Source of the DNA: an uncultured Eubacteriales bacterium
GTDB taxonomy: Bacteria; Acidobacteriota; Aminicenantia; Aminicenantales; Aminicenantaceae
Assembly (NCBI GenBank): GCA_964611275.1
Contig: CAZSZS010000040.1
Coordinates: 2,992-66,991 of the forward strand
Length of the DNA: 64,000 bases
Direction of reading: 5' to 3'
Part shown: positions 3,284 to 50,073 of the stretch, one piece after another
Layout: the number at the start of each line of letters is the position of its first letter
How positions within the stretch are numbered: position 1 is the stretch's first letter
The notes under the pieces: model-generated
What the model was told of the DNA's origin: nothing
Database searches by the model: none
What the model saw: only the letters and a program-made list of their open reading frames with translations
Position numbers and translations under genes: made by a program

Positions 3284-6088
3284 ATGTTTGTTCCCCTGCG
3301 GGTTCACTCCGTGTACAGCAAAGGCAAAGGGAGTGTGCTTCCGGATGAGCTGGCTTTCTGGGCAAAAGACAGGGGAATGGCTGCGGCATGTCTTTCAGAT
3401 AGGGAGGTTTTTTACGCATGGGGACGCTGGAAGGAAGCAGCCCGCAGAAACAAAATAGTCCCTTTGTACGGCTGTGAATTGACCGTCCAAAAGAGAAAGC
3501 TTCTGTTTGTGGTTAAAAACCGGACCGGATACTGGAACCTGATGGAGATCTTTAACAGCAGGGAGATAAAACAGGTCCGGGGTCTTGTGGTGGTCTATAT
3601 CCCCCAGGCGGGGGAGAGTGAGTTTCCGGAGGGGCTCAAAGCCGCGGCTGGTCCGGATTTCTACCTGGGAGCGGATTTTCAAAACTTTGAAAAGGTAGTG
3701 CACTGGGCCGGGGTGTACTCTCTGCCCGGGGTTTGGGCCAATCCCCTGAAGTTTATTGGAAATCCGAAAAGGCTTATCCTTACTCACTCTATCCATGAAA
3801 AACGGCCTTTCCCTCCGGAATGGACAAAATGGAAGTCCCGGATGAAGTTTTTCGGCCCGCTCCAGCAGGAATTGGCACTGAAAAAGTTTGGCAGCAAAGT
3901 CAGTGAGTTTTTTAGAAGGACTCTTGAAGTGGCTGAAAAGTGCTCTTTCACTCTGGAAAACATCGTTCCCGGACTGCCTGAAGGCCTTTTCCCAGAGTCG
4001 TTCAGGGATATGGTCATGAAAACAATGCAGCAGAAGAAATCCCTGAGCTGGAGAGAGAGGCAGCGGGCGCGGATAGAGCTGCAGGCGGTTGAAAAAACAG
4101 GATTCGGTCCTTATTTCCAGGTGGTCCATGATGTGGTGCGTTTTGCACGGCGGGAGGGGATCCTTTATAATCTCAAAGGCTCCGGGGCCTCTTCTTTTCT
4201 GGCCTATCTTCTGGGGATCTCCCATATCAATCCGGTTGATTTTGACCTTTATTTTGCCCGGTTTTTAAACCAGGGCCGGAAGGACCCTCCGGATTTTGAC
4301 CTGGACTTTGATTCCAGATACAGAGACCGGGTGCTGGAGTATGTTCTGGAGAATTACGGAAAGGGAAAAACTGGGGCGGCTTTTGTGTGCAGCCTCAAAA
4401 ACTACCGGGCCCGTTCCGCTGTTTATGAAACGGCGCGGGCATTTGGCCTGCCTCCGGCAGAGTCGAGGGCGCTCAGCAAGAAGGTCCCCTATTTTGTGGA
4501 GCCTGATTATCTGAAAAAGCATCACCCTCCGCCCGGCTGTAAGGAGATCTGGAGGGCTGCCTCGGAATTGACTTCGGTCTACGGTGAAAGTTCTCTTCAT
4601 GTGGGAGGTGTTCTTTTGACACCCCCGCCGGTCAGCCGGTATCTTCCTCTGGAAAAATCAGCAAAAGGCCTCATCATGTGTCATTTTGACCGGGATGCGG
4701 TGGAAGATTTGAAGCTCATTAAGCTGGACCTTCTTTCCGTACGAGGGCTGGCCGCGATTTCCGGGACGAAAAATGAGCTGAACATAAAGGATATTCCATG
4801 GAATGACAAAAAGAGCTTTCTCCTTCTCTCCCGCGCACAGACCATAGGATGCTTTCAGGTCGAGAGTCCGGCCATGATGAATCTGCTTTCCCGAATGAAG
4901 CCGGATGATATCTACGGGCTGACCCAGGCTTTAGCGTTGATCCGGCCGGGGCCGACGCAAAGCGGGACAAAAAAGGCCGTGCTCCAGGCGCGTGAGGGCA
5001 GGTCATCTGCCAATGACCCGTTTTTCTCCGGAATCATTCCTGAGACCGGAGGGCTTCTCCTTTATGAAGAGCAGGTCATGCAGGTGGCTGAGAGAGTCGC
5101 CGGCATGAGTTCAGAAGAGGGAGACACACTGCGCAGGGAACTGAAAAAGAAATCGCCCTGTCCCGCCTTGAAAGATAAGTTTTTTCAAGGAGCGCAAAAG
5201 CGAGGATACACACGCACCGAGATAACAAAGATATGGAATCATATGGAGCAATTTTCTTCCTACTCTTTTAATAAAGCTCATAGTGCCTCCTATGCGTGCA
5301 TGGCTTATCAGTCCGTTTATTTAAAAGCCCATCATCCTCTGCCGTATCTCAAAGCTGTTTTGAATGCCGGCGGAGGTTATTACAGCCTCCCGGTCTATAT
5401 AGAGGAAGCCAAAAGGCTTGGGATCAAGGTTCTGCCCCCGGATGTCGCACACAGTGATTATGACTTCGAAGAGGAGGGCTCCTGCATAAGGGTGGGGCTT
5501 TTGTCCATAAAGCGCCTTAAGACCAGCACGGCCAAAAAGATAATAGAAGAACGCCGAAAAGGCCCTTACCGCTCTCTGGATGATTTTCTTGCCAGGGTTT
5601 CTGTGACCAGGGCGGAGCTTTTCTCTCTGGTCAAGTCAGGGGCTTTGGACCCGTTGGAGCCCCGAAGGGCAGAGCAGGTCCTGAATGGTTATAAAGGCAG
5701 CGGAGGAACAGAAAAGATTCCCGAGATGGAAAAGGCACGGAAAGAGAAGATGCTGATTGACTCTCTGGGGTTTGATCCCACAGGAGATGCTCTCAATCTT
5801 TTTAACGCGAAAAGGCCGGCTCTGCGGATCAAAGACCTGGAATACAGGGCCGGACAGATCGTGGAGCTTATGGTCCGGGTTATGGACGCGCGCAGGAAAA
5901 AGGTCAGGCAGGGGGAAACGTATTTCTTTCTTTTTTCAGACGAAACAGGCATGATCGAAGGAGCAGGCACAAAGAAATGTGTTCCTTTTGGTTCGCCGCC
6001 GGCCTGTTATGTGCGGGGCAGGATCCGCAGGAGCGAGAACGGGCGCGTCAAGATTTTCAACTGTGCTTTTCTCTCTTTGCACGAGTGA
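3284..6088 (+). CDS. dnaE2: Error-prone DNA polymerase III alpha-like subunit (DnaE2-type, short form)
   Basis: Pol III alpha core motifs: PDFDLDF, IRPGP, FNKAHSASYA. C-terminal OB-fold-like region. About 935 aa is too short for replicative DnaE. The PHP N-terminus is degenerate (PLRVHSVYS). Start is uncertain (ATG 3284, GTG 3281 or TTG 3263). Confidence 0.8.
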   Translation: MFVPLRVHSVYSKGKGSVLPDELAFWAKDRGMAAACLSDREVFYAWGRWKEAARRNKIVPLYGCELTVQKRKLLFVVKNRTGYWNLMEIFNSREIKQVRGLVVVYIPQAGESEFPEGLKAAAGPDFYLGADFQNFEKVVHWAGVYSLPGVWANPLKFIGNPKRLILTHSIHEKRPFPPEWTKWKSRMKFFGPLQQELALKKFGSKVSEFFRRTLEVAEKCSFTLENIVPGLPEGLFPESFRDMVMKTMQQKKSLSWRERQRARIELQAVEKTGFGPYFQVVHDVVRFARREGILYNLKGSGASSFLAYLLGISHINPVDFDLYFARFLNQGRKDPPDFDLDFDSRYRDRVLEYVLENYGKGKTGAAFVCSLKNYRARSAVYETARAFGLPPAESRALSKKVPYFVEPDYLKKHHPPPGCKEIWRAASELTSVYGESSLHVGGVLLTPPPVSRYLPLEKSAKGLIMCHFDRDAVEDLKLIKLDLLSVRGLAAISGTKNELNIKDIPWNDKKSFLLLSRAQTIGCFQVESPAMMNLLSRMKPDDIYGLTQALALIRPGPTQSGTKKAVLQAREGRSSANDPFFSGIIPETGGLLLYEEQVMQVAERVAGMSSEEGDTLRRELKKKSPCPALKDKFFQGAQKRGYTRTEITKIWNHMEQFSSYSFNKAHSASYACMAYQSVYLKAHHPLPYLKAVLNAGGGYYSLPVYIEEAKRLGIKVLPPDVAHSDYDFEEEGSCIRVGLLSIKRLKTSTAKKIIEERRKGPYRSLDDFLARVSVTRAELFSLVKSGALDPLEPRRAEQVLNGYKGSGGTEKIPEMEKARKEKMLIDSLGFDPTGDALNLFNAKRPALRIKDLEYRAGQIVELMVRVMDARRKKVRQGETYFFLFSDETGMIEGAGTKKCVPFGSPPACYVRGRIRRSENGRVKIFNCAFLSLHE

Positions 6089-6156: not shown

Positions 6157-7803
6157 CTATTTTTCGGAGAACACAATGGCTACTGTTTTCCAGACCTTGA
6201 CTCTCACTCCGTTCTTGACAGCTGGTTTGTATTTCCACTTCTTTATGGTTCTTTCTGTATTTTCGTTAAGACCGTATGAATTCTCGATCCCCTGGACTAT
6301 TCTGGTCTCAATCACATCCCCTGTTTCAGAAACCAAAATGACCAGCACCACTTTACCGCTCACTTTGTATTTTAATGCAGCAGGAGTGTATTCCGGCTCG
6401 ACTCTTTTGACGAGCTCCGGCGGGCTGTCCACTTCATTCAAAGCAATGATATCCCCTGTTTCGATTTTTTTCTCAGGTGCAGGTTCGGGTGTTTCCGCAG
6501 GTTCTTGATCCTCGGTCTTTTGTTCCTCTTTGTTGGGTCTGGATTCCGGTAGGACATGATCTATAAGTTCTTCGATTTTGGGCTGAGGAATCTGTTTGAA
6601 ATCCGGAGGAGGCAGCGGGGTGATGCTCTCCTCCTGGCTTTCCCGGATGGTGTCTGCGGTTTTTGCCGGAGCTTCCACCACATCTTGATTTTGTTCTTCA
6701 GATGGCAAGGATTCCGGGGGAGAGGCAGGCCGCTCTGAAGCGATTTGGGTTTTTCTCTCAGCCTCTTCTCCTGGATCTTGTGGCCCGGCTGGATACTCTT
6801 CCGAGATGGTTATAGGTGTATCGACAGAGGCAGCATCTTCTATCTCCGGGTCGATTTGTTCTGCTGCAGCGGACTTATAAAATTGTTGAGAGGCTTCCTG
6901 TTTTTTATGGGAATTTTTAGGAAGAGCTACTAACAGAATAAGAGTCAATCCCAGAATGACAGAGCCAGATGCAAACAGTATCCACCTGGGTATCTTTTTT
7001 TTATTTTCTTCAGCAGAATATTCATTAAAAAGGGAAGCTCTTCTGTATTTTTTTTCAGGATCTTTGTGTTTCTTTTCTTCTTCTTTCCGGCTTTCCTGAA
7101 TTGTTTTCCCTTCTTTTTTTTCTTCCTTTATTTCTTCCTCTTGAAGAGGCGGTTTAACCGGAGCTTTCTGTTTGTTTGCGGGGTGGGCGAATTCAGCCAG
7201 TTTGCTTTTGAGGATCTCATCTATCTCTCTGCTTTTATCACTTGTGAGGTTTGTTGGCTGTGCTTTATCTCTCTTTTTAGCTAAATATTCCTCATACAGA
7301 CTATCAATCTCTTTCTCTCCGTTTAGTTTATTTTGTCTTTCCTGAGGTGAGGAACTCGCGGCTTTTTTCTCGGTTTCTTTCTTTTCCAGAAAAGCCTCTG
7401 AAGCTCTTTTATCTCTGGGTGACATTTCTGTGTCTATATTTAATAATTCAGATACCTTTGATATCATCTCCTTTTCTTTGTACGGTTTGGTAATGAAAGC
7501 GGAATTATTGAAATATTTAAGAACATAGCTCTGACAGGCTGCTTCAGAATAAAAATTAGTCATCATGAGAAGATTTATCTGTATGGTAAATGATTCGGAG
7601 ATTTCTTCAAGAAGGTCAAATCCATGGAGCTTTGACAGGAAGGGTTCCATGATAATAAGGTCAGGCTTTTCCTCATAGAATTGGGATTTGCCTTCCAGGC
7701 CGTCTTTGGCTGCTATCACCTGGTATCCCTGCTCTTGCAGAAGATTCTTGAGAGAGGATAAGGATGTCCTGTTGTAATCAATGATGAGTATCTTTTTTTG
7801 CAT
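6157..7803 (-). CDS. Atypical receiver domain - TM - Pro/Glu-rich spacer - TonB C-terminal domain fusion protein
   Basis: N-terminal CheY-like fold (KKILIIDYN...DLIIMEPFL...LLMMTN...ITKPY). Lys/Glu low-complexity stretch, then TM helix IPRWILFASGSVILGLTLILLVALP. C-terminal TonB_C-like YTPAALKYKVSGKVVLVILVSETGDVIETRIVQG...KYKPAVKNG. Start set at ATG 7803 (MQKKILIID); the ORF is open up to 7866. Confidence 0.75.
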   Translation of the reverse strand: MQKKILIIDYNRTSLSSLKNLLQEQGYQVIAAKDGLEGKSQFYEEKPDLIIMEPFLSKLHGFDLLEEISESFTIQINLLMMTNFYSEAACQSYVLKYFNNSAFITKPYKEKEMISKVSELLNIDTEMSPRDKRASEAFLEKKETEKKAASSSPQERQNKLNGEKEIDSLYEEYLAKKRDKAQPTNLTSDKSREIDEILKSKLAEFAHPANKQKAPVKPPLQEEEIKEEKKEGKTIQESRKEEEKKHKDPEKKYRRASLFNEYSAEENKKKIPRWILFASGSVILGLTLILLVALPKNSHKKQEASQQFYKSAAAEQIDPEIEDAASVDTPITISEEYPAGPQDPGEEAERKTQIASERPASPPESLPSEEQNQDVVEAPAKTADTIRESQEESITPLPPPDFKQIPQPKIEELIDHVLPESRPNKEEQKTEDQEPAETPEPAPEKKIETGDIIALNEVDSPPELVKRVEPEYTPAALKYKVSGKVVLVILVSETGDVIETRIVQGIENSYGLNENTERTIKKWKYKPAVKNGVRVKVWKTVAIVFSEK

Positions 7804-7968
7804 CCCGCTGCCAAACATCTTTTGAATGAACATATATAAATTACGTCTTTGAAAGAAACCGGTCAATCACCTTTAGGGGTGATTTAAGAGGTGAGATTGT
7901 TAATCTGCAGCAACCTTGACTCGTTCATCACCCGGGTTGGCCTGCAGTGGATTAAACTTTCTAATGTC

Positions 7969-40498: not shown

Positions 40499-43400
40499 AT
40501 GGGAACATTGAATAAAAACATGAAAGCATGGCTTGAGGAGAAATTCATTCAGAGAGTCAACTTCAACCCGTATGAAAGACTTCTTTACAGCCATGATATT
40601 GCGGCCATGCCTAAACTGGTGAAGCCCCTTATCGGGAATACGGTCCCTGATGCCGTGGTCCAACCGGAAAATGAACAGGAATTATCCGAACTTATCAGAT
40701 GGGCTGCAGAGAAGAGAATACCGCTGGTCCCAAGAGGAAAAGGGTCATCCGGATACGGAGGGATCATCCCGACAAAAAAAGGGATCGTCATCGATTTTTA
40801 CCGGATGAAGAGGGTCGTGTCAGTGGATGAAAAACAAATGCTGGCAGTAGTGGAACCCGGAATAACCTGGGAACAGCTGGATAGAGAGCTGGCTAAAAAA
40901 GGCCTCACCGTACGTCTTTACCCTACCAGCTACCCTTCTTCGTCCGCCGGGGGATGGCTCGCCCAGGGCGGAGCGGGCATAGGCTCTTTTGAGTACGGAT
41001 GGTTTTCAGACAATGTCAAAAGCGCGAGGATCGTCCTTCCTGATGGGAAGATAAGAGATCTCTCTGGAAAGGAGATGGAGCTTGTGGCTGATGCAGAGGG
41101 GACCACAGGAATTATAAGCCGGCTGACAGTTCATGTGCAGAAACTGGAAAAAAACCATGTAACTGCTTTTGCCTGTCCCGATGCTCATTCCCTTTCCCGG
41201 ATTTTTCAGGAAATCATAGACCGGAAACTTCCGGTCTGGTCTGTGGTTTTTATAAATCCACGCATGGCCGAAATGAAAAATCGATCTCCTCTGCTCGAAA
41301 AGCATGGTCACCCTGTAGAAGAGAGGGTGATACTTCCGGCCGCTTATATCACGACCCTTGCCTTCAGGGAAAAGGATCGTGATGAGATCATGGGAAAACT
41401 GGCCGGAATCATCAAGAAGTGCGAAGGAGAGATGCTCAGCCAGAGGATCGCCGACCATGAATGGAAAAATCGATTCAAATTGATGATCGTCAAGAGGCTT
41501 GGTCCCTCTCTTGTTCCGGCGGAGGTAGTGGTTCCTTTGGATAAATTAGGTGATGTCATGGAGGAGATCGAGAATAAAGTGAACCAGCCGGTGGTCAAGG
41601 AAGGCGTCATTATAAAAAAAGGAAGAGACGGAAAAGCCGAGGCTGTCATCCTGGGTTTTATCCCCAGTGACCAGCGGAAATTTTCCTATAATTTTGTTTT
41701 CGGGCTAGTGCTGACTATCATGAAGATCGCTAAAAAATACGGGGGGCGGCCTTATTCGACCGGATTGTATTTTTCCGGAGAGAAAGGCAAGGTTCTTGGG
41801 AAGAAGAGAAGCACAGAGATCGAAAAATATAAGAAAACAGTCGATCCGCATAAAATTTTAAATCCGGATAAGGTCGTGAAAAAGAATGCGGTAAGCAGAG
41901 CGTTGAGCTTTGCCAAACTTTTTGAGCCTTTTGTGAGACCATTCGGCAATACGGTGGTCACCCGAGTAGGAGAGTACTTTGAAAAACCGGTGAGAGGGAT
42001 TCCGGCCGATGTGGCCAGATATGCCTATGGCTGTTCCCAGTGCGGTTACTGTCTGGATGAGTGCGACCAGTTTTTTGGCAGGGGATGGGAGAGCCAGTCG
42101 CCACGCGGGAAATGGTACTGGCTTCGCGAATACATGGAAGGAAAGGTCGAATGGAACCAATTTATGGTCGATACCATGATCGCCTGCACGACTTGTGAGT
42201 TCTGTGACATTCGCTGTTCCGCATCGCTTCCCATAGAGTCATCCTGGATGAAATTAAGGGGAAAATTGATCCATGAAGACAAAAAGATGACCTTTCCTCC
42301 TTTTGAGATGATGGCTGCTGCTTCCAGATCTCAAGGAAACATATGGGCAGGGTATCGAAAAGACCGCACAGCCTGGTTTCCAAAAGAATTGAAAGAAAAA
42401 CACGGGCCTGGGAAAAAGAGCAAAAATATCTATTTTGCCGGATGCACGGCTTCTTATGTCGAACACGATATCGGAGCGGCTTCTGTGACCCTGCTGGATG
42501 CGGCTGGGGTAGATTTTTCCTATCTCGGGACTAAGGAAAACTGCTGCGGCACTCCCATGCTGGTGGCGGGGAAATGGGATGTGTTCAAAGAGATCATGCG
42601 CAGAAACATAGAAGCTGTCAAGGAAGCCGGAGCGGATACAGTGATCTCGTCCTGTCCGGCTTGTGACATGATGTGGCGTCACTATTACCCGCAATGGGCG
42701 GATAAACTCAATATGGATTACAACATAAAAGCCAAACACTACAGCGAAGTGATTTCAGAAAAGCTGAAAAAAGGAGAGTTTAAATTCACCCATGCGCTGA
42801 AAGGCAAGGTGACCTGGCATGACTCCTGTCATATCGGACGTGTCTCAGGAGTCTACGAAGAACCCAGGGATATTATTAAGGCCGTTCCGGGAGTTGAGTT
42901 TGAGGAGATGGCTCACAACAGGGAAGAAGGACACTGCTGCGGAAGCGTATTGACTTTACTAAAAGACCCTCCTATAGCGGCTGACATAGGAAAGTCAAGG
43001 ATGGAGGAAGCAAAGGAGATCAATGCAGAGACTGTTCTTGCTCTTTGCCCCTGCTGTGAGTTCCAACTAAGGGTCACAGAGGAAAAAAAGAAACTGGGGC
43101 TGGAAGTCAAAGACTTAGCCACCTTTGCCTGTAAAGCTTTGGGAAAGGAGTTTAAAGATCCGAGCCCCGAAGTGGCCAAGCAGTGGGCTGTTTTTGAAGC
43201 CATGATCGAGCTTATGACACCTGAGGGATTTGCCAGCCTTATGGCTTCCATGTGGCCCGAGCTCTTGGATGCCATGCCCCTGGGAATGGGGAAGATGATG
43301 CGGGCTATAGGGAAGATGGGAGTATTCGGTGGTTTTTTATTGGGTCTGATGAAACCGGTATTTCCTGTGCTGTTCCCAAAACTTCTGCCTGGCATGATGC

Positions 43401-43582
43401 CAAAAGTCATGCCCAAGATGCTGGAGAAGATAGAAGAAAGGATTCCCATGCCTGATTATATGGCAGAGCAAATGCCGGATATGATGCCCGGAGTCATGGA
43501 TAATCTGATGCCGCATATGCTGCCCGATGTGGTTCCTCTGGTTGTGCCTGAAATGATATCTTATCTTAGAAGCCGGGCTTAG
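40499..43582 (+). CDS. FAD-binding oxidase (GlcD-like) fused to a 2x[4Fe-4S] and double-CCG (GlcF/HdrD-like) module, with a Met/Pro-rich C-terminal tail
   Basis: FAD_binding_4 motif PLVPRGKGSSGYGG. CSQCGYCLDEC and CTTCEFCDIRC cluster motifs. CCG motifs (ENCCGTP, GHCCGS). The last ~126 aa are unusually Met-rich. Confidence 0.85.
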   Translation: MGTLNKNMKAWLEEKFIQRVNFNPYERLLYSHDIAAMPKLVKPLIGNTVPDAVVQPENEQELSELIRWAAEKRIPLVPRGKGSSGYGGIIPTKKGIVIDFYRMKRVVSVDEKQMLAVVEPGITWEQLDRELAKKGLTVRLYPTSYPSSSAGGWLAQGGAGIGSFEYGWFSDNVKSARIVLPDGKIRDLSGKEMELVADAEGTTGIISRLTVHVQKLEKNHVTAFACPDAHSLSRIFQEIIDRKLPVWSVVFINPRMAEMKNRSPLLEKHGHPVEERVILPAAYITTLAFREKDRDEIMGKLAGIIKKCEGEMLSQRIADHEWKNRFKLMIVKRLGPSLVPAEVVVPLDKLGDVMEEIENKVNQPVVKEGVIIKKGRDGKAEAVILGFIPSDQRKFSYNFVFGLVLTIMKIAKKYGGRPYSTGLYFSGEKGKVLGKKRSTEIEKYKKTVDPHKILNPDKVVKKNAVSRALSFAKLFEPFVRPFGNTVVTRVGEYFEKPVRGIPADVARYAYGCSQCGYCLDECDQFFGRGWESQSPRGKWYWLREYMEGKVEWNQFMVDTMIACTTCEFCDIRCSASLPIESSWMKLRGKLIHEDKKMTFPPFEMMAAASRSQGNIWAGYRKDRTAWFPKELKEKHGPGKKSKNIYFAGCTASYVEHDIGAASVTLLDAAGVDFSYLGTKENCCGTPMLVAGKWDVFKEIMRRNIEAVKEAGADTVISSCPACDMMWRHYYPQWADKLNMDYNIKAKHYSEVISEKLKKGEFKFTHALKGKVTWHDSCHIGRVSGVYEEPRDIIKAVPGVEFEEMAHNREEGHCCGSVLTLLKDPPIAADIGKSRMEEAKEINAETVLALCPCCEFQLRVTEEKKKLGLEVKDLATFACKALGKEFKDPSPEVAKQWAVFEAMIELMTPEGFASLMASMWPELLDAMPLGMGKMMRAIGKMGVFGGFLLGLMKPVFPVLFPKLLPGMMPKVMPKMLEKIEERIPMPDYMAEQMPDMMPGVMDNLMPHMLPDVVPLVVPEMISYLRSRA

Positions 43583-44352
43583 ATCACAACCGCATCCACA
43601 AACAGTTCATAGGTATTGTCTTCGTCAAGGTCGTGGATTTTTACCTTTTCAACTTCATTAAGGCCCATTATCCCGACAAGTTCGGATTCAGAGAGAATTT
43701 TAACATTTGCTTGTTTGAGCTCAGCCTTGAGATCGTCTGCAACATTTTTGGATTTTTTCTGAGTTAAAAAGACAACTCTAGGAGAATACTTGGCTAAGGC
43801 TCGGGCCAGCTCTCCGGATTCTTTTCCTTTATCCTGGATAAGAATCCTTTTTTCCTTTAATAAAGAAGGGTCTTTGATTTTATGATAAACTCCCTTTCCT
43901 GAGAAGTCTTTTTCTCCCGGGATTTTCTTCATGGAAGGGCTTTTGACCTCTTTTTCATTTTCCTTTTTTTCTTTTTGTTTTTCTTTGTAATTTTTTATGG
44001 CTGTTTTAAGGGCATCGGCAGCCAGATTTGAACAGTGCATTTTTACCGGAGGAAGCCCGTCCAGTTCATCCGCCACATCCTGTCGGGTTATTTTAAGGGC
44101 TTCATCCAGAGTCTTCCCTTTAGCTAATTCTGTCACCATAGAGGCGGTGGCCACAGCTGAACCGCAGCCGAATGTTTTGAATTTAATATCTTGGATCCGG
44201 TTGTTTTTGACTTTCAATGTGAATTCCATAAGGTCCCCGCACACAGGATTTCCGACCGTGCCTTTGGCTATATCTTTCCCTGTTAAAGTGCCCACGTTCC
44301 TGGGATTGCGGAAATGGTCCAAAACTTTTTTAGAATATGATGTTGATTTCAT
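43579..44352 (-). CDS. iscU: IscU/NifU-N Fe-S scaffold fused to a degenerate thioredoxin-reductase-like NAD(P)H subdomain
   Basis: IscU ligands GNPVCGD, FGCGSAVATAS, HCSNLA. Lys/Glu linker. The C-terminal ~105 aa align by eye to the TrxB NADPH domain (KRILIQDKGKESGELARALAKYSPRVVFLTQKK...VKIHDL...YELFVDAVVI). Confidence 0.8.
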   Translation of the reverse strand: MKSTSYSKKVLDHFRNPRNVGTLTGKDIAKGTVGNPVCGDLMEFTLKVKNNRIQDIKFKTFGCGSAVATASMVTELAKGKTLDEALKITRQDVADELDGLPPVKMHCSNLAADALKTAIKNYKEKQKEKKENEKEVKSPSMKKIPGEKDFSGKGVYHKIKDPSLLKEKRILIQDKGKESGELARALAKYSPRVVFLTQKKSKNVADDLKAELKQANVKILSESELVGIMGLNEVEKVKIHDLDEDNTYELFVDAVVI

Positions 44353-44379: not shown

Positions 44380-45531
44380 TTAATAGATCGGGGAAAGCTT
44401 TCTTAATCTGTCAACGACTTCAGGCAGAGCCTTTATGACAGAATCAATATCGCTTTCCTTTGTAAACCTGCCTGTGGTGAGTTCCAATGAGCCGTGTGCT
44501 TCTTCGTGAAGCAAACCCATGGCGATCAGTGTATGAGAGGGCTCCAGTGTTTTTGAGGAGCAGGCTGAACCTGTTGAAACAGCTATCCCCTTGTCATTCA
44601 GTGACAGAAGCAGTGATTCGCCTTCGATCCCGTCGAAACGAAAATGAGCGTTGTTGGGCAGCCTGTTTTCAGGGTGCCCGTTAAGATAGGACCTTGGAAT
44701 ACTTTCTAAGATCTCTTTGATCAGCCTGTCTCTGAAAGACTGTAATTTATGGGCTTCCTCTTTTCTTTCCTGCATCACGATCTCTGACGCACGGGCCATT
44801 CCTGCGATGGCCGGCAGGTTTTCCGTGCCGGAGCGGATTCCGTTTTCCTGTCCTCCGCCAATGATCTGCGGCATCAACTTGATTCCTTTTCTTACATAGA
44901 GAACTCCCAATCCTTTGGGTCCGTAAATATCATTCGATGATAGGGTCATCAGGTCTATGAAATCTTTTTGGACATCTAGGGCAAGGAGCCCTTCGGCTGC
45001 CACAGCATCGGTATGAAAAGCGATGTCTCTTTCTCTGCACAAGCGGCCTATTTCCTTTATGGGCTGGATCGTACCGACTTCATTGCTGGCATAGCCTATG
45101 GAAACAAGAAGGGAGTCATCTGTGAGCCGCTCAATTATTTTATCCGGATGCACTCTTCCGTAGTGGTCTACAGGGACCTTTGACACTTTAAATCCGGATT
45201 TCATGAGAAACTTAGCTGTGTTGTGTATGGATATATGCTCTGTTTCTGAGAGGATGATGTGCTTTCCCTTACCTTTGTTTTTGAGCGCATAGCCAATAAG
45301 CGCCAGGTTATTGGACTCGGTGGCACCTGATGTGAATATGATTTCGTCAGGTTCGGCTTGAATGAAGCCTGCGATTGTGGAACGGCTTTTATCAAGAGCT
45401 TCTGTGGCTTGGTCTCCTATGGAATGCAGCGACGATGGATTTCCGAATGTTTCATTGAAATAGGGATCCATGGCTTTAACGACCCTTGGGTCTACAGGTT
45501 TTGAGGATTGGTAGTCAAGGTAGACATTCAT
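44380..45531 (-). CDS. iscS: NifS/IscS-family (class V aminotransferase fold) protein lacking the PLP-binding lysine
   Basis: FTSGATESNN, SETEH, HTDAV, catalytic-loop SACSS, HGSLELT. The canonical SGHKIYGPKG is SSNDIYGPKG here (Asp codon GAT at 44929-44931). Confidence 0.85.
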   Translation of the reverse strand: MNVYLDYQSSKPVDPRVVKAMDPYFNETFGNPSSLHSIGDQATEALDKSRSTIAGFIQAEPDEIIFTSGATESNNLALIGYALKNKGKGKHIILSETEHISIHNTAKFLMKSGFKVSKVPVDHYGRVHPDKIIERLTDDSLLVSIGYASNEVGTIQPIKEIGRLCRERDIAFHTDAVAAEGLLALDVQKDFIDLMTLSSNDIYGPKGLGVLYVRKGIKLMPQIIGGGQENGIRSGTENLPAIAGMARASEIVMQERKEEAHKLQSFRDRLIKEILESIPRSYLNGHPENRLPNNAHFRFDGIEGESLLLSLNDKGIAVSTGSACSSKTLEPSHTLIAMGLLHEEAHGSLELTTGRFTKESDIDSVIKALPEVVDRLRKLSPIY

Positions 45532-45546: not shown

Positions 45547-45906
45547 TTAAAACCACATGGTTGTGTCAGATTCAAGAGCCAGGTCATTCAATGTGCCGGC
45601 TCCCACGATCTTCAAACCCGGGATAAGGTTGGCCTTTTCCATGCCCAGCATTTGTTTGGAGGCTTCGCAAACGTATATTTCTATGCCCATATCAAGCGTA
45701 TTTTTAATGACTTCTGATAAAGCAGGAAAGGAACCGGCTTTAATTTTCTCAGCAGCTCCAGGCTTTAAAACTCTCAGTCCCTGGCCCAGATAATAAATCT
45801 TAGCATCAATATCCATGGCCTTTGCGGTCTGGGCTAGGACAAGTGGGGAGTACTGCCTTTCCGGGTGATCACTTGTTTGAACATAAAGGATTGAATCTTT
45901 TTTCAT
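45547..45906 (-). CDS. DsrE/DsrF-like sulfur-relay family protein
   Basis: 119 aa. DsrE fold pattern with conserved Cys in IYVCEASKQM. Adjacent to tusA. Confidence 0.7.
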   Translation of the reverse strand: MKKDSILYVQTSDHPERQYSPLVLAQTAKAMDIDAKIYYLGQGLRVLKPGAAEKIKAGSFPALSEVIKNTLDMGIEIYVCEASKQMLGMEKANLIPGLKIVGAGTLNDLALESDTTMWF

Positions 45907-45915
45907 TCTTGCCTC

Positions 45916-46158
45916 CTATTTTATTTTTTTTATCAAGAACCGCATGGATTCATCTCTTTTTTCGAATGAGATGATCTCATGGCCTGTTCTTTTTGCAAAC
46001 CTCTTTATATCTTCCTCAGCAGCCGGGTCATCTGCCAGAACTTCCAGGATTTCTCCTTTTTCGATGCTGTCTATGCTTTCTCTTGTCTGGAACAAAGGTT
46101 CAGGACAAAAAAGTCCGATACAATCAAGGGTTTTTTGGGGTTTATTTTTTGATGACAT
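45916..46158 (-). CDS. tusA: TusA/SirA-family sulfur carrier
   Basis: 80 aa. LDCIGLFCPEPL contains the CPxP active-site motif. Confidence 0.85.
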   Translation of the reverse strand: MSSKNKPQKTLDCIGLFCPEPLFQTRESIDSIEKGEILEVLADDPAAEEDIKRFAKRTGHEIISFEKRDESMRFLIKKIK

Positions 46159-46385
46159 CGCTTCACCCTCCTATGAGTTATAAATCCTATAGAAATTGTA
46201 GGATATGTATAATATAAGGCTTTTATCCCCCTTTGTCAACCTCATATTTTCTTATTTTTTTTATATTCCAGTCAACCTTTTTGTCGGGTTTTACGTCTTA
46301 TATACAGAAGTTCGAAATTTTCGAAGTGCTCATTGGGCATGAAAAAAATGAAATTTTCAAAAGAGTCAATAATAAGGAGCCAAGC

Positions 46386-46715
46386 ATGAAAACCTTTACC
46401 AAAAAAGAAGAGCAGATCCTCCTGGCAATTTACCATCTCAAAGATAAAGCCTATCTGATCCCTATTCGGGAAATGATAAAGAAATTTACGGGAAAATACT
46501 ATTCTGTGGGCACCATCTATGCCCCTCTGAACCGTCTCCATAGCTGTGGTTATTTGAAGACGTATGTGGAAAAGCCCGAATCCTCCTCCGGAGGCAAACC
46601 TATCAAATATTACTGCCTGACCAAAGACGGATTGGAAGCCCTGGAATCTCTTAAAAGACAGAATGAGTTGATGTGGGAAGGCTTTAAGGTGCCTGCTTTT
46701 GGCGACAAGAATTAA
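46386..46715 (+). CDS. PadR family transcriptional regulator
   Basis: ILLAIYHLKDKAYLIPIREMI...YYSVGTIYAPLNRLHSCGYLK (winged HTH). ATG 46386 preceded by AAGGAG. The upstream part of the track ORF is not credible. Confidence 0.85.
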   Translation: MKTFTKKEEQILLAIYHLKDKAYLIPIREMIKKFTGKYYSVGTIYAPLNRLHSCGYLKTYVEKPESSSGGKPIKYYCLTKDGLEALESLKRQNELMWEGFKVPAFGDKN

Positions 46716-49380: not shown

Positions 49381-50073
49381 CTATACGGGCTCAAATTCGT
49401 CCTTAGATGCCCCGCACACCGGGCAGACCCAATCGTCAGGGATATCTTTAAAAGCGGTTCCCGGCTCGATTCCGCTGTCAGGATCGCCCTTTTCCGGTTC
49501 ATAAATATATCCGCACACTGTGCATCTGTAAGATTTCATTTTTGTTTTCTCCTTTTTTTCCGTGTTTTTTTCTTTAACATAAGTGGGCGCATTTTTGTCT
49601 GTCTTGCCTTTTTTGACCTCATGATAATAGGAGTAGGTAAGGGGTTCCCCCTGTTTCAGTTTTTCTGCTTCAATCAGCTTTCCCACAAATGCAGTGTGAG
49701 TGCCCACGTCTAAAGCCTCTGTCACTTCACATAAAAGATACCCAAGAGTGTTCTCGGTCAGATAGGGGATGCCTTTTTTCCCTGTTTTGTAGCCGACTTC
49801 CTTGAATTTATCGAATTCACGGCCCGACCTGAAACCAAAAGTCCCGATAAACTTAAGAGGTGTGTCCTTTTCTAAAATTGAGACCGAGAAAACTTTGCTT
49901 TCAGTGATATAGTTATGTGTGAGATTTTTTTTATTGAGGCATACCAGAATTTTAGGGGGCTCTGCGGTGATCTGAGTCACAACATTTGCTATCTGGCCGT
50001 TGTATTTTTCTCCCTTTTTGGAGCTTATCACATAAACTCCATAGCTGATATCGAACAAAGTGGTTATATCCAT
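49381..50073 (-). CDS. Flavin reductase domain fused to C-terminal rubredoxin (high-molecular-weight rubredoxin type)
   Basis: Flavin_Reduct-like N-terminus. C-terminal [16 protein letters not shown]...[14 protein letters not shown] rubredoxin. Confidence 0.85.

Follow-up and report, generated by a model that had tools for sequence, protein, structure and literature searches.

The IscS protein of Archaeoglobus fulgidus (AfIscS) lacks desulfurase activity because of a Lys-to-Asp substitution (PMC7585200; bioRxiv 10.1101/2024.03.20.586028). One of its cysteines serves as a ligand of the [2Fe-2S] cluster carried by IscU, and the A. fulgidus complex binds this cluster (PMC7585200; PMC13066941; bioRxiv 10.1101/2024.03.20.586028). 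Only the A. fulgidus proteins are known to form an (IscS-IscU)2 complex in which the IscS cysteine ligates [2Fe-2S] (PMC13066941). How such minimal IscS/IscU systems work is an open problem of the field. So is the finding that A. fulgidus iscS2U2 alone does not complement E. coli, not even when sulfide (Na2S) is added; the authors ask what is missing (bioRxiv 10.1101/2024.03.20.586028). Structures of the A. fulgidus protein, IscS2 (AF0564), are deposited as PDB 4EB5, 4EB7, and 4HVK, and 4R5F is its D199K mutant. The isc1 cluster of Methanosarcina acetivorans (MA0810-MA0807) encodes a SirA-like protein, a DsrE superfamily protein, an IscS1 without the PLP lysine, and an IscU1 of 24.2 kDa. In the paper that draws isc1, the neighbors are 'genes of unknown function' and the cluster is uncharacterized. 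The MIS system (MisS/MisU; Garcia et al., 2022, as summarized in PMC13066941) has two components and includes a cysteine desulfurase.

We analyzed a 64-kb stretch of bacterial DNA (the window) which encodes a Lys-less, PLP-site-degenerate IscS/NifS homolog, hereafter the IscS homolog. Its gene is the third in the order tusA-dsrE-iscS-iscU, with gaps of 9 nt from tusA to dsrE, 15 nt from dsrE to iscS, and 27 nt from the iscS stop to iscU (Table 1). The cassette is a bacterial one, newly added to the known but poorly understood AfIscS kind.

Table 1. Coordinates of the cassette, its key codons, and its flanking elements in the window.
Feature	Position	Strand	Remarks
iscS homolog, Lys-less and PLP-site-degenerate	44380..45531	-	383 aa; ~55% identity to AfIscS2 (4EB5)
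Codons AAT GAT, Asn200-Asp201, replacing E. coli IscS His205-Lys206	44929..44934	-	Clade members: N 240/240, D/E 240/240
Codon GCA, Ala178, replacing PLP-O3'-binding Gln183	44998..45000	-	Ala in 232/240 clade members
Codon GAA, Glu350, replacing substrate-carboxylate-binding Arg354	44482..44484	-	Clade column L/E/Q/V, Arg never
Codon TGC, Cys324, mobile-loop cysteine (E. coli C328, A. fulgidus C321)	44560..44562	-	Kept in 240/240
tusA-like sulfur carrier, CPxP motif (GLFCPEP, Cys18)	45916..46158	-	80 aa; Pfam TusA PF01206, E 3e-25
dsrE-like sulfur carrier, active-site Cys80 (YVCEAS)	45547..45906	-	119 aa; Pfam DsrE PF02635, E 1e-16
iscU scaffold domain, residues 1 to ~130; C38, D40, C63, H106, C107, LPPVK	43963..44352	-	Pfam NifU_N, E 1e-50
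IscU C-extension, residues ~142-257, degenerate thioredoxin-reductase NADPH-domain fold	43582..43929	-	phmmer, profile, Foldseek
Candidate sigma-70-like promoter, TTGACA-17 nt-TATATT, 11/12	46211..46239	-	~50 nt upstream of tusA ATG; consensus match only
PadR-family regulator, divergent, possible local regulator	46380..46715	+	Pfam PadR, E 7e-7

The residues were mapped by a MAFFT alignment of the IscS homolog with E. coli IscS (from NC_000913) and A. fulgidus IscS2. The column of E. coli Lys206, which is Asp199 in A. fulgidus, holds Asp201 and no lysine; His205 corresponds to Asn200 and Gln183 to Ala178. The initial annotation had read these three replacements from the translation, which includes FIDLMTLSSNDIYGPKG and FHTDAVAAEG, and the alignment bears them out and adds a fourth, since E. 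coli Arg354 is Glu350 here and Leu in A. fulgidus IscS2. The Asp201 codon GAT was confirmed on the minus strand at 44931-44929, where it had been placed, next to the Asn200 codon AAT at 44934-44932. The annotation had also pointed to an inactive Lys-to-Asp IscS from A. fulgidus. The literature agrees (PMC7585200; bioRxiv 10.1101/2024.03.20.586028), and A. fulgidus IscS2 is the best PDB match of the IscS homolog (4EB5, E 2e-137), with an identical SSNDIYGPKG block at about 55% full-length identity. The two proteins have in common the Q-to-A, H-to-N, and K-to-D changes, the loss of Arg354, and the Cys loop.

The aminotransferase class-V fold of the IscS homolog is intact (Pfam PF00266, E 4e-73), and its PDB matches to IscS/NFS1/NifS all have E < 1e-74. 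Like E. coli IscS (1P3W/3LVL), to which it is 44% identical, it has the Aminotran_5 fold, the Cys loop, and an IscU partner. It keeps the equivalents of T76, H104, N155, D180, S203, and T243 as well as the catalytic C328 (Cys324, in the context STGSACSS), but K206, H205, Q183, and R354 of canonical IscS/NifS are lost. The scores stay below the NCBIfam cut-offs for NifS (TIGR03402, 470.8 against 530.75), IscS (TIGR02006, 398.8 against 643.2), and NF010611 (400.7 against 548). Of the hallmarks of a PLP-dependent group I desulfurase, the fold and the loop cysteine are present. The signature of the AfIscS2 type (Asn-Asp at E. coli positions 205-206, Ala at 183, a non-Arg residue at 354, and the Cys loop) is complete. 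Judged from these residues, the protein is very probably a PLP-independent IscS paralog of the A. fulgidus IscS2 type and no cysteine desulfurase. It has lost the Lys of the Schiff base and the residues that bind the phosphate (His), O3' (Gln), and the substrate (Arg). Public records name genes of this kind 'cysteine desulfurase', which is very probably wrong. A search for a second IscS-like gene within the window found none. In the Pfam annotation of the neighbors (~38 to 60.8 kb), hscBA, fdx, iscA, and iscR are also missing from the vicinity of the iscS-iscU pair.

The two genes upstream encode proteins of sulfur carrier families. Cys18 of the TusA-like protein is conserved in 86/86 cassette homologs, and the score of 69.1 bits against the NCBIfam TusA cut-off of 78 makes the protein a TusA family member but not an equivalog of E. 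coli TusA. The nearest structure to the DsrE-like protein is 3MC3 from S. solfataricus (E 1e-12), with the active-site cysteines aligned, and 3MC3 has been identified as DsrE3A (PMC11094781). We call the protein DsrE3A-like after this nearest structure; its score with the DsrE2 model is 36.6, far below 210. Its Cys80 is conserved in 83/83 homologs. Sigma-70-like matches are in total as numerous in the region as expected from shuffled sequence, and only its quality and position favor the promoter candidate upstream of tusA listed in Table 1. The PadR gene beside the cassette is conserved only in Aminicenantes, and it has the same place in loci L001 and L002.

The IscU protein consists of a scaffold domain and a C-terminal extension. 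Its ligand residues C38/D40/C63/H106/C107 (canonical Cys37/Asp39/Cys63/His105/Cys106) and the LPPVK motif are invariant in 49 homologs, and PDB entries 7C8M and 4EB5_C are structural matches. The score with TIGR03419 is 185.8, marginally under the cut-off of 187.9. The extension matches the thioredoxin reductase (TrxR) 3F8D in a PDB phmmer search (E 9e-5) and positions 115-231 of the TIGR01292 TRX_reduct profile (E 1.7e-11). Its AF2 model (pLDDT 80) retrieves TrxR 2ZBW/3F8D in Foldseek (E ~1e-10). The domain shares the NADPH-domain fold with low-Mr thioredoxin reductase at ~25% identity over ~120 residues, but it has DKGKES where the reductase has GGGNSA. There is no FAD domain, no Gly-rich dinucleotide motif, and no cysteine at all, hence no CxxC. 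The C-terminal domain is not a reductase. A 112-aa ORF after A. fulgidus iscU was considered as a split-off homolog of the extension and was rejected (BLASTP E 0.16, HTH-like).

The A. fulgidus locus has the order DsrE-IscS2-IscU, with iscU directly downstream of iscS2 and a DsrE-like gene (49% identical) directly upstream, as in the window. The A. fulgidus IscU differs in its length of 153 aa without the TrxR-like extension, and no TusA gene is adjacent, the one found being ~6 kb away, whereas tusA heads the operon here. The archaeal isc1 of M. acetivorans matches our cassette in gene order, in its IscS without the PLP lysine, and in the larger size of its IscU; the IscU1 extension is likened to the TrxR-like domain by size only. 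The resemblance to MIS, as far as the cited source describes it, lies in an IscS-IscU pair of anaerobes without chaperones, ferredoxin, or an A-type carrier. What sets the Lys-less subgroup apart is a MisS without catalytic function, a pair of sulfur carriers, and, in the subclade of our protein, a fused domain on MisU. The initial annotation had described a two-gene IscS/IscU arrangement with tusA and dsrE; iscU and both carrier genes are indeed adjacent, but the unit is a four-gene operon. Its emphasis on a bacterial occurrence with tusA/dsrE was sound as to the linkage, which extends to the A. fulgidus archetype. The variant itself is not rare and makes up a large cross-domain clade. The arrangement is not new either, because isc1 had already been drawn with this gene order and an enlarged IscU.

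In archaea and bacteria alike, nearly the entire Lys-less clade shares the linkage to TusA/DsrE. Among the 67 metagenomic Lys-less loci with at least 700 nt of upstream sequence, 66 have TusA and/or DsrE directly upstream (TusA in 65, DsrE in 59). The IscU C-extension is present in 65/65 metagenomic Lys-less loci. In a genome scan, TusA and DsrE were found at 8/8 Lys-less loci and at 0/26 canonical IscS loci. With six more loci looked up by protein, all 14 of these other Lys-less loci have TusA and/or DsrE adjacent. The order is TusA-DsrE-IscS-IscU in Bathyarchaeia-like and Hadesarchaea loci and TusA-IscS-IscU in Ferroglobus, each with the Lys-less IscS. In loci L039 and L041, IscU is directly followed by a glutaredoxin and an FTR-like gene; in L037/L038, L042, and L043, this pair is found 2.5-4 kb downstream. 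Promethearchaeota have a CoADR-rhodanese-TusA protein after IscU, a linkage that recurs in 10/80 metagenomic loci. Genes for O2/ROS and iron defense (rubrerythrin, FDP, desulfoferrodoxin, ferritin, Fur, Grx, FTR-like) are striking around the WOR-3/Stahlbacteria-type loci inspected. A universal defense context was rejected, since only 11/38 long metagenomic loci have any such gene within 4 kb; it is thus lineage-specific and lies outside the core of the cassette.

The IscS homolog probably works together with the adjacent TusA, DsrE, and IscU. In E. coli, sulfur passes from IscS to TusA and on to TusD. The E. coli relay from IscS through TusA to TusBCD and the Rhd/TusA/DsrE relays (TusA-DsrE3A; 3MC3) use the same IscS, TusA, and DsrE-type families, and the carrier cysteines are conserved here. 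In the relays of E. coli and sulfur oxidizers, however, IscS or a rhodanese makes the persulfide, which feeds tRNA thiolation or sulfur oxidation. Here the last gene of the operon encodes an Fe-S scaffold, and the IscS homolog would be unable to form persulfide, which points to a relay running towards IscS/IscU. We infer this direction solely because PLP chemistry has been lost. According to work of Shi et al. from 2010, W45, R220, R223, and R225 of E. coli IscS reportedly contact TusA; in the MAFFT alignment, these residues are not conserved in the IscS homolog.

On balance, we lean towards a non-catalytic IscS homolog that lends IscU a Cys ligand or a persulfide site, with sulfur supplied by a TusA/DsrE relay. 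For TusA/DsrE as the sulfur donors taken by itself, we put the chances slightly below even. From the published A. fulgidus structures, the IscS homolog is expected to dimerize and dock IscU, with the mobile-loop Cys324 reaching the IscU site as the fourth cluster ligand or as a hand-over point for sulfur. Protein-bound sulfane sulfur, not cysteine cleavage, would be the source, passing from TusA Cys18 to DsrE Cys80, to Cys324, and to IscU. TusA and DsrE3 proteins take sulfane sulfur from polysulfide and transfer it in vitro (PMC11094781). Here, polysulfide or sulfane sulfur derived from sulfide may load the carriers, or a rhodanese/Npsr-type enzyme may do so. More speculatively, the TrxR-like domain of IscU could dock a thioredoxin-/glutaredoxin-type reductant which reduces the persulfide to sulfide. 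Within the O2/ROS and iron-defense islands of some lineages, the cassette may serve as a stress-proof route of Fe-S assembly or repair. Against such a relay stand the 8/67 loci without DsrE and the 1/67 without either carrier, and also the published AfIscS model, which requires free sulfide only, in a probably sulfidic habitat.

We tentatively extend this relay to a broader proposal. Lys-less IscS, TusA, DsrE, and IscU, with the TrxR-like docking domain in the bacterial/Asgard subclade, may form a distinct and widespread cysteine-/PLP-independent machine for Fe-S assembly/repair. In this machine, sulfur would run from TusA through DsrE and the IscS Cys loop to IscU with thioredoxin/glutaredoxin-type reduction, and the whole gene set would have moved together between the archaeal and bacterial domains. 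The parts absent from the failed AfIscSU complementation could then be TusA and DsrE. The cassette would thus point to a sulfur supply for Fe-S assembly which bypasses cysteine desulfuration.

Another account, that of Pagnier/Fontecilla-Camps, has the IscS protein only stabilize IscU and lend a Cys ligand, with free sulfide from the environment as the source. TusA and DsrE would then serve another pathway (tRNA thiolation, Moco, or sulfur detoxification) and be neighbors for regulation only. For AfIscS, the published work arrives at this view (PMC7585200; bioRxiv 10.1101/2024.03.20.586028). It suits the anaerobic hosts in their probably sulfidic settings, whose minimal SUF systems use sulfide directly (bioRxiv 10.1101/2024.03.20.586028). 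It appears doubtful to us, however, since the carriers recur beside Lys-less iscS across archaeal (Archaeoglobi, Bathy/Hadesarchaea, Asgard) and bacterial (Aminicenantes, WOR-3/Stahlbacteria) lineages while none of the sampled canonical loci has them, and since the operon gaps are just 9-27 nt. The lack of E. coli complementation by A. fulgidus iscS2U2 with Na2S (bioRxiv 10.1101/2024.03.20.586028) also argues against free sulfide being sufficient.

The former PLP pocket raises the question of a remaining ligand. No homolog varies at the equivalents of T76, H104, and S203 or at the new Asn, 239/240 keep D180, and the Lys site is Asp/Glu in 240/240. This is far above the background, in which 24% of the alignment columns are at least 98% conserved. 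The conservation of T76/H104/D180/S203 hints at a ligand that is still bound in the pocket, a point which the relay leaves unexplained; in a mere relic, these residues would be expected to vary. The IscS homolog could have a different catalytic or metal-delivery role, with PLP/PMP bound non-covalently or with a metal, for example Fe2+, coordinated by His99/Asp175/Asn200/Asp201. We consider such a role improbable. The substrate-binding Arg is lost, and the D199K variant of A. fulgidus IscS reportedly binds PLP and stays inactive. The conservation could equally be structural, AfIscS is reported to be PLP-free and inactive (PMC7585200; bioRxiv 10.1101/2024.03.20.586028), and no metal in the pocket is known from the literature consulted.

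The cassette might also be a module for sulfur trafficking or persulfide detoxification in which IscU is a SufU-like sulfur acceptor and not part of Fe-S assembly. Two dedicated sulfur carriers are encoded, and the CoADR-rhodanese-TusA protein linked in Promethearchaeota and some metagenomic loci is persulfide reductase-like. We regard this as very unlikely because IscU retains the full scaffold signature including LPPVK and fits the IscU/NifU models far better than SufU (186 against 72 bits), and because the A. fulgidus complex carries a [2Fe-2S] cluster (PMC13066941).

The Asn-Asp or Asn-Glu pair was found in 120/120 of the best homologs of the IscS homolog and in 119/119 of the best natural homologs of AfIscS2; of the 240 natural homologs that are closest, every one carries it. 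Independent assemblies carry the same motif in proteins 83-91% identical to ours, and named Aminicenantes homologs are 91-92% identical, which makes Aminicenantes the likely origin of the window. That codon 201 reflects an error of sequencing or assembly, or that the gene is a decaying desulfurase which lost its activity recently, is conceivable a priori and is practically refuted by these comparative data together with four coordinated active-site changes, a dN/dS of 0.05-0.09 against orthologs, and an unbroken reading frame. As the initial annotation had held from the intact fold and loop Cys, the gene is not decayed. We are highly confident that it encodes a PLP-less protein of the AfIscS type under selection.

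The phylogenetic placement was examined in distance-based NJ trees with the signature columns removed. The IscS homolog clusters with AfIscS2 and apart from canonical IscS/NifS, inside a single Lys-less clade (bootstrap 77%). The clade includes Archaeoglobi, Bathy/Hadesarchaea, Asgard archaea, Aminicenantes, WOR-3, and Stahlbacteria. Within it, our protein belongs to a bacterial and Asgard subclade with long IscU (99%), whereas AfIscS2 belongs to an Archaeoglobi subclade (99.6%). The Fe-S field treats the Lys-to-Asp IscS of A. fulgidus as an exception, but Lys-less IscS is a large cross-domain clade, not rare, and under strong purifying selection. A set of 150 representatives at the 50% identity level shows two or more origins of the Lys-less state. 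Another Lys-less group, with QG/QQ/HT/HR/NQ at positions 205-206, lies elsewhere in their tree.

The Lys-less IscS/NifS homolog of the window (IscS*) was aligned by MAFFT with E. coli IscS (NC_000913) and A. fulgidus IscS2 (AfIscS2; AF0564), the latter sequence rebuilt from the PDB alignment. The Schiff-base Lys206 of E. coli IscS corresponds to Asp199 in AfIscS2 and Asp201 in IscS*. His205 is replaced with Asn200, Gln183 with Ala178, and Arg354 with Glu350 (Leu in AfIscS2), while Thr76, His104, Asn155, Asp180, Ser203, and Thr243 are unchanged. On the minus strand, AAT occupies 44934-44932 and GAT 44931-44929. The Lys-to-Asp and His-to-Asn changes and the altered Gln described in the initial annotation are thus borne out to the codon level, as is the Asp in the Lys206 column. 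The fold and the catalytic-loop Cys are conserved as it had stated (Pfam Aminotran_5, E 4e-73; Cys324 aligned with E. coli Cys328). The NCBIfam scores of IscS* are below the curated equivalog cut-offs for both NifS (470.8 against 530.75) and IscS (398.8 against 643.2). By its Lys, His, Gln, and Arg positions and these cut-offs, IscS* does not classify as a cysteine desulfurase. The replacements establish, at the sequence level, a protein that would be unable to perform the PLP chemistry of canonical desulfurases.

The best-matching solved structures are those of AfIscS2 (4EB5/4EB7/4HVK, E 2e-137) and its D199K mutant (4R5F), followed by canonical IscS, NFS1, and NifS at E 1e-99 and weaker. AfIscS has no desulfurase activity, owing to the Lys-to-Asp substitution (PMC7585200), as the initial annotation had stated, and it contributes one Cys to the coordination of the IscU-bound [2Fe-2S] cluster (PMC7585200; PMC13066941). 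Both A. fulgidus paralogs carry the substitution and were termed "exceptional" by the authors (bioRxiv 10.1101/2024.03.20.586028), and M. acetivorans IscS1 likewise lacks the PLP Lys (PMC7585200). IscS* is a bacterial case of these known, mechanistically unsettled AfIscS2-type proteins. From its sequence and phylogenetic placement, it is predicted to work as AfIscS2 does.

For the placement, the nearest 150 representatives were taken from 1.84 billion representatives at 50% identity. Most have the canonical HK or SK at E. coli positions 205-206, and several have no Lys. In distance-based neighbour-joining trees built with the four signature columns left out (500 bootstrap replicates), IscS*, AfIscS2, and the surrounding Lys-less sequences form one clade (77%), which provides the placement that the initial annotation had called for. 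Its subclades are Archaeoglobi (99.6%), Bathyarchaeia/Hadesarchaea (69%), and a third containing IscS* (99%), where sequences of Promethearchaeota and Thorarchaeota branch among those of Aminicenantes, WOR-3, Stahlbacteria, and an Actinomycetes-labelled MAG. The closest homologs with a name, from Aminicenantes, are 91-92% identical to IscS*, and L001 is an Aminicenantes MAG locus; the window most likely belongs to a Candidatus Aminicenantes genome. Asgard and bacterial members share 63-68% identity, and this, together with their interleaving in the distance trees, suggests that the Lys-less iscS moved between domains. Five other IscS-like proteins among the representatives (P0184, P0204, P0206, P0227, and P0233) also lack the Schiff-base Lys, with QG, QQ, HT, HR, or NQ at positions 205-206. 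In most of them, Gln183 and Arg354 are lost as well and the loop Cys is kept. They were placed apart from the AfIscS2 clade in the first neighbour-joining tree, and the bootstrapped tree does not unite the five (12.5%); this second group apparently arose independently.

Features of the cassette and its surroundings in the window
Feature	Coordinates	Strand	Length	Remarks
Flavin reductase-rubredoxin fusion	49381..50073	-	230 aa	3.2 kb upstream of tusA, same strand
tusA-like	45916..46158	-	80 aa	CPxP Cys18
dsrE-like	45547..45906	-	119 aa	Cys80
iscS*	44380..45531	-	383 aa	Lys-less; blocks FHTDAVAAEG and FIDLMTLSSNDIYGPKG
iscU	43579..44352	-	257 aa	C-terminal extension
GlcD-like fusion	40499..43582	+	1027 aa	FAD_binding_4, FAD-oxidase_C, 4Fe-4S dicluster, two CCG (HdrD/GlpC-like) domains

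The tusA and dsrE genes reported beside iscS* are indeed directly upstream, in a tight four-gene run (tusA-dsrE-iscS*-iscU; gaps of 9, 15, and 27 nt in order). A sigma-70-like candidate promoter, TTGACA-17-TATATT (a consensus match only), is located ~50 nt upstream of tusA, and a PadR-family gene is transcribed divergently from this region. The closest structure to the DsrE-like protein is S. solfataricus SSO1125 (3MC3, E 1e-12), with the active-site Cys aligned; SSO1125 is DsrE3A according to Tanabe et al. (PMC11094781). The FAD-linked oxidase fusion is convergent with iscU, with an overlap of a few bases at the iscU stop, and its C-terminal tail is rich in Met and Pro (…MPDYMAEQMPDMMPGVMDNLMPHMLPDVVPLVVPEM…). 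It accompanies the cassette in both Aminicenantes-type loci reaching that far (L002 and L020; 87-93% identity) and was not found in loci of other phyla.

Among one-per-species reference genomes, TusA and DsrE are directly upstream in 8/8 Lys-less loci (four Aminicenantes/Acidobacteriota, Thorarchaeota, Promethearchaeota, an uncultured archaeon, and an Actinomycetes MAG), and a long IscU follows in all seven with enough downstream contig. Neither carrier is encoded at any of 26 canonical loci (HK, Gln, Arg) from the same scan. In Methylophilaceae (L013-L017, L019), two canonical (HK) IscS paralogs stand in tandem directly upstream of iscU, an ordinary duplication that serves as a negative control for the linkage. 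The complete order with an IscU of 257-259 aa is found in a complete WOR-3 genome, a Stahlbacteria contig, and three more contigs; in Bathyarchaeia-like and Hadesarchaea contigs the IscU has 124-130 aa. Ferroglobus placidus has TusA-IscS*-IscU. In A. fulgidus, a DsrE-like gene (49% identical to that of the window, E 4e-40) immediately precedes AF0564, and an IscU of 153 aa follows. A metagenome scan with the clade alignment, biased to the query's own subclade, returned 80 loci, all Lys-less. Where at least 700 nt lie upstream, TusA is present in 65/67, DsrE in 59/67, and either in 66/67; TusA abuts IscS* without DsrE in eight loci. IscU carries the extension in 65/65 loci with enough downstream sequence, and every TusA (86/86) and DsrE (83/83) homolog keeps its carrier cysteine. 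The Lys-less IscS of A. fulgidus is already known, and the identical gene order has been drawn for M. acetivorans (MA0810 SirA-like, MA0809 DsrE-superfamily, MA0808 IscS1, MA0807 IscU1 of 24.2 kDa), where the neighbours are simply labelled "additional genes of unknown function". We found no paper linking TusA/DsrE to Lys-less IscS in the literature searched. Against that literature, three points appear to be new: how large the clade is and how widely it extends across domains, its near-obligate linkage to TusA/DsrE (A. fulgidus archetype included), and a thioredoxin reductase (TrxR)-fold domain on IscU.

Residues 1 to ~130 of IscU contain the full scaffold ligand set (C38, D40, C63, H106, C107) and LPPVK. 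Residues ~142-257 resemble the TrxR NADPH domain (PDB 3F8D, E 9e-5) and match TIGR01292 (E 1.7e-11, profile positions 115-231). In the AlphaFold2 model (pLDDT 80), the C-terminal half resembles the TrxRs 2ZBW and 3F8D over ~120 residues (E ~1e-10). The extension has neither a cysteine nor a Gly-rich dinucleotide loop and is therefore predicted to be TrxR-like in fold but not in redox chemistry.

We propose that IscS* docks IscU and that its loop Cys would ligate the nascent cluster, as in the published A. fulgidus structures, while TusA/DsrE would hand sulfane sulfur to Cys324 or IscU. Since IscS* should be unable to generate persulfide, these co-inherited carriers would be the most economical sulfur source. 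TusA and DsrE3 proteins load sulfur from polysulfide and transfer it in vitro (PMC11094781). The published model of a scaffold-only protein using free sulfide is a less probable alternative, though one to be taken seriously. A. fulgidus iscS2U2 alone did not complement E. coli, even with sulfide (bioRxiv 10.1101/2024.03.20.586028), a failure for which carrier-supplied sulfur would account. More speculatively, the TrxR-like domain may bring in a reductant of the thioredoxin or glutaredoxin type. Glutaredoxin and FTR-like genes directly follow IscU in two loci of the island type described below and are a few kb downstream in the rest. Like the minimal iron-sulfur (MIS) system, the window has an IscS/IscU pair without chaperones, but here MisS is predicted to be non-catalytic, and two carriers are added.

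SSN[D/E] occupies the PLP-Lys site in all 120 best homologs of IscS* and in all 119 natural best homologs of AfIscS2; NK occurs there once, in the engineered D199K protein. Among 240 clade sequences (identity down to 51%), position 205 (E. coli numbering) is always Asn, 206 Asp or Glu (236 Asp), and 328 Cys; 183 is Ala in 232, and 354 is L/E/Q/V and never Arg. Of the former pocket residues, T76, H104, and S203 never vary and D180 is kept in 239, against a background where only 24% of alignment columns reach 98% conservation. Window T71, H99, D175, and S198 and the replacement N200-D201 are thus essentially invariant in a protein not expected to bind PLP. No current model accounts for this retention. 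A different ligand, or a metal, may occupy the former pocket, although we regard a still functional pocket as an unlikely explanation of IscS*. A sulfur-trafficking cassette with a role other than Fe-S is very improbable. IscS* itself is under selection and retains the Cys loop, and its gene lies with those of two sulfur carriers and of a scaffold with its full ligand set. Sequencing or assembly error and gene decay are excluded by the universal SSN[D/E] and by dN/dS of 0.05-0.09 without stop codons against Aminicenantes orthologs from independent assemblies (Nei-Gojobori), in agreement with the earlier view that the gene is not decayed.

In WOR-3 (CP070664.1)/Stahlbacteria-type contigs (L037-L043), the cassette lies on the same strand in the middle of a long island, covered here over ~8 kb to each side. 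The islands encode Fur, Nfu, rubredoxin, flavodiiron protein, three to four rubrerythrins, ferritin/Dps, desulfoferrodoxin, hybrid-cluster protein, glutaredoxin, AhpC, a Cu/heavy-metal P-type ATPase, an FTR-like (FeThRed_B-rubredoxin) protein, and Thioredox_DsbH. Such an island looks like an anaerobe oxidative-stress/iron regulon with its own Fe-S machinery. This setting is not general: of 38 long metagenomic loci, no more than 11 have any O2-defence/iron-type gene within 4 kb. The only echo in the window is the flavin reductase-rubredoxin fusion, 59% identical to the Stahlbacteria island copy, which precedes the flavodiiron protein. In A. fulgidus (L044, AE000782.1), feoB fragments and a gene with a DtxR-type iron-dependent repressor domain (~3400..6000) lie upstream of dsrE-iscS2-iscU, which suggests iron-responsive control of that cluster. 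A 112-aa HTH-like ORF (7620..7958) is downstream, and a TusA gene, next to one for a Pyr_redox_2 protein, lies ~6 kb upstream. In Promethearchaeota, rubrerythrins and a 795-aa CoA-disulfide/persulfide-reductase-like protein (L006, 8125..10512, +; Pyr_redox_2, dimerisation domain, two rhodanese, TusA) follow IscU, the latter directly downstream. This protein may be the enzyme that loads or reduces the sulfane sulfur of the relay, and homologs occur in 10 of the 80 metagenomic loci.
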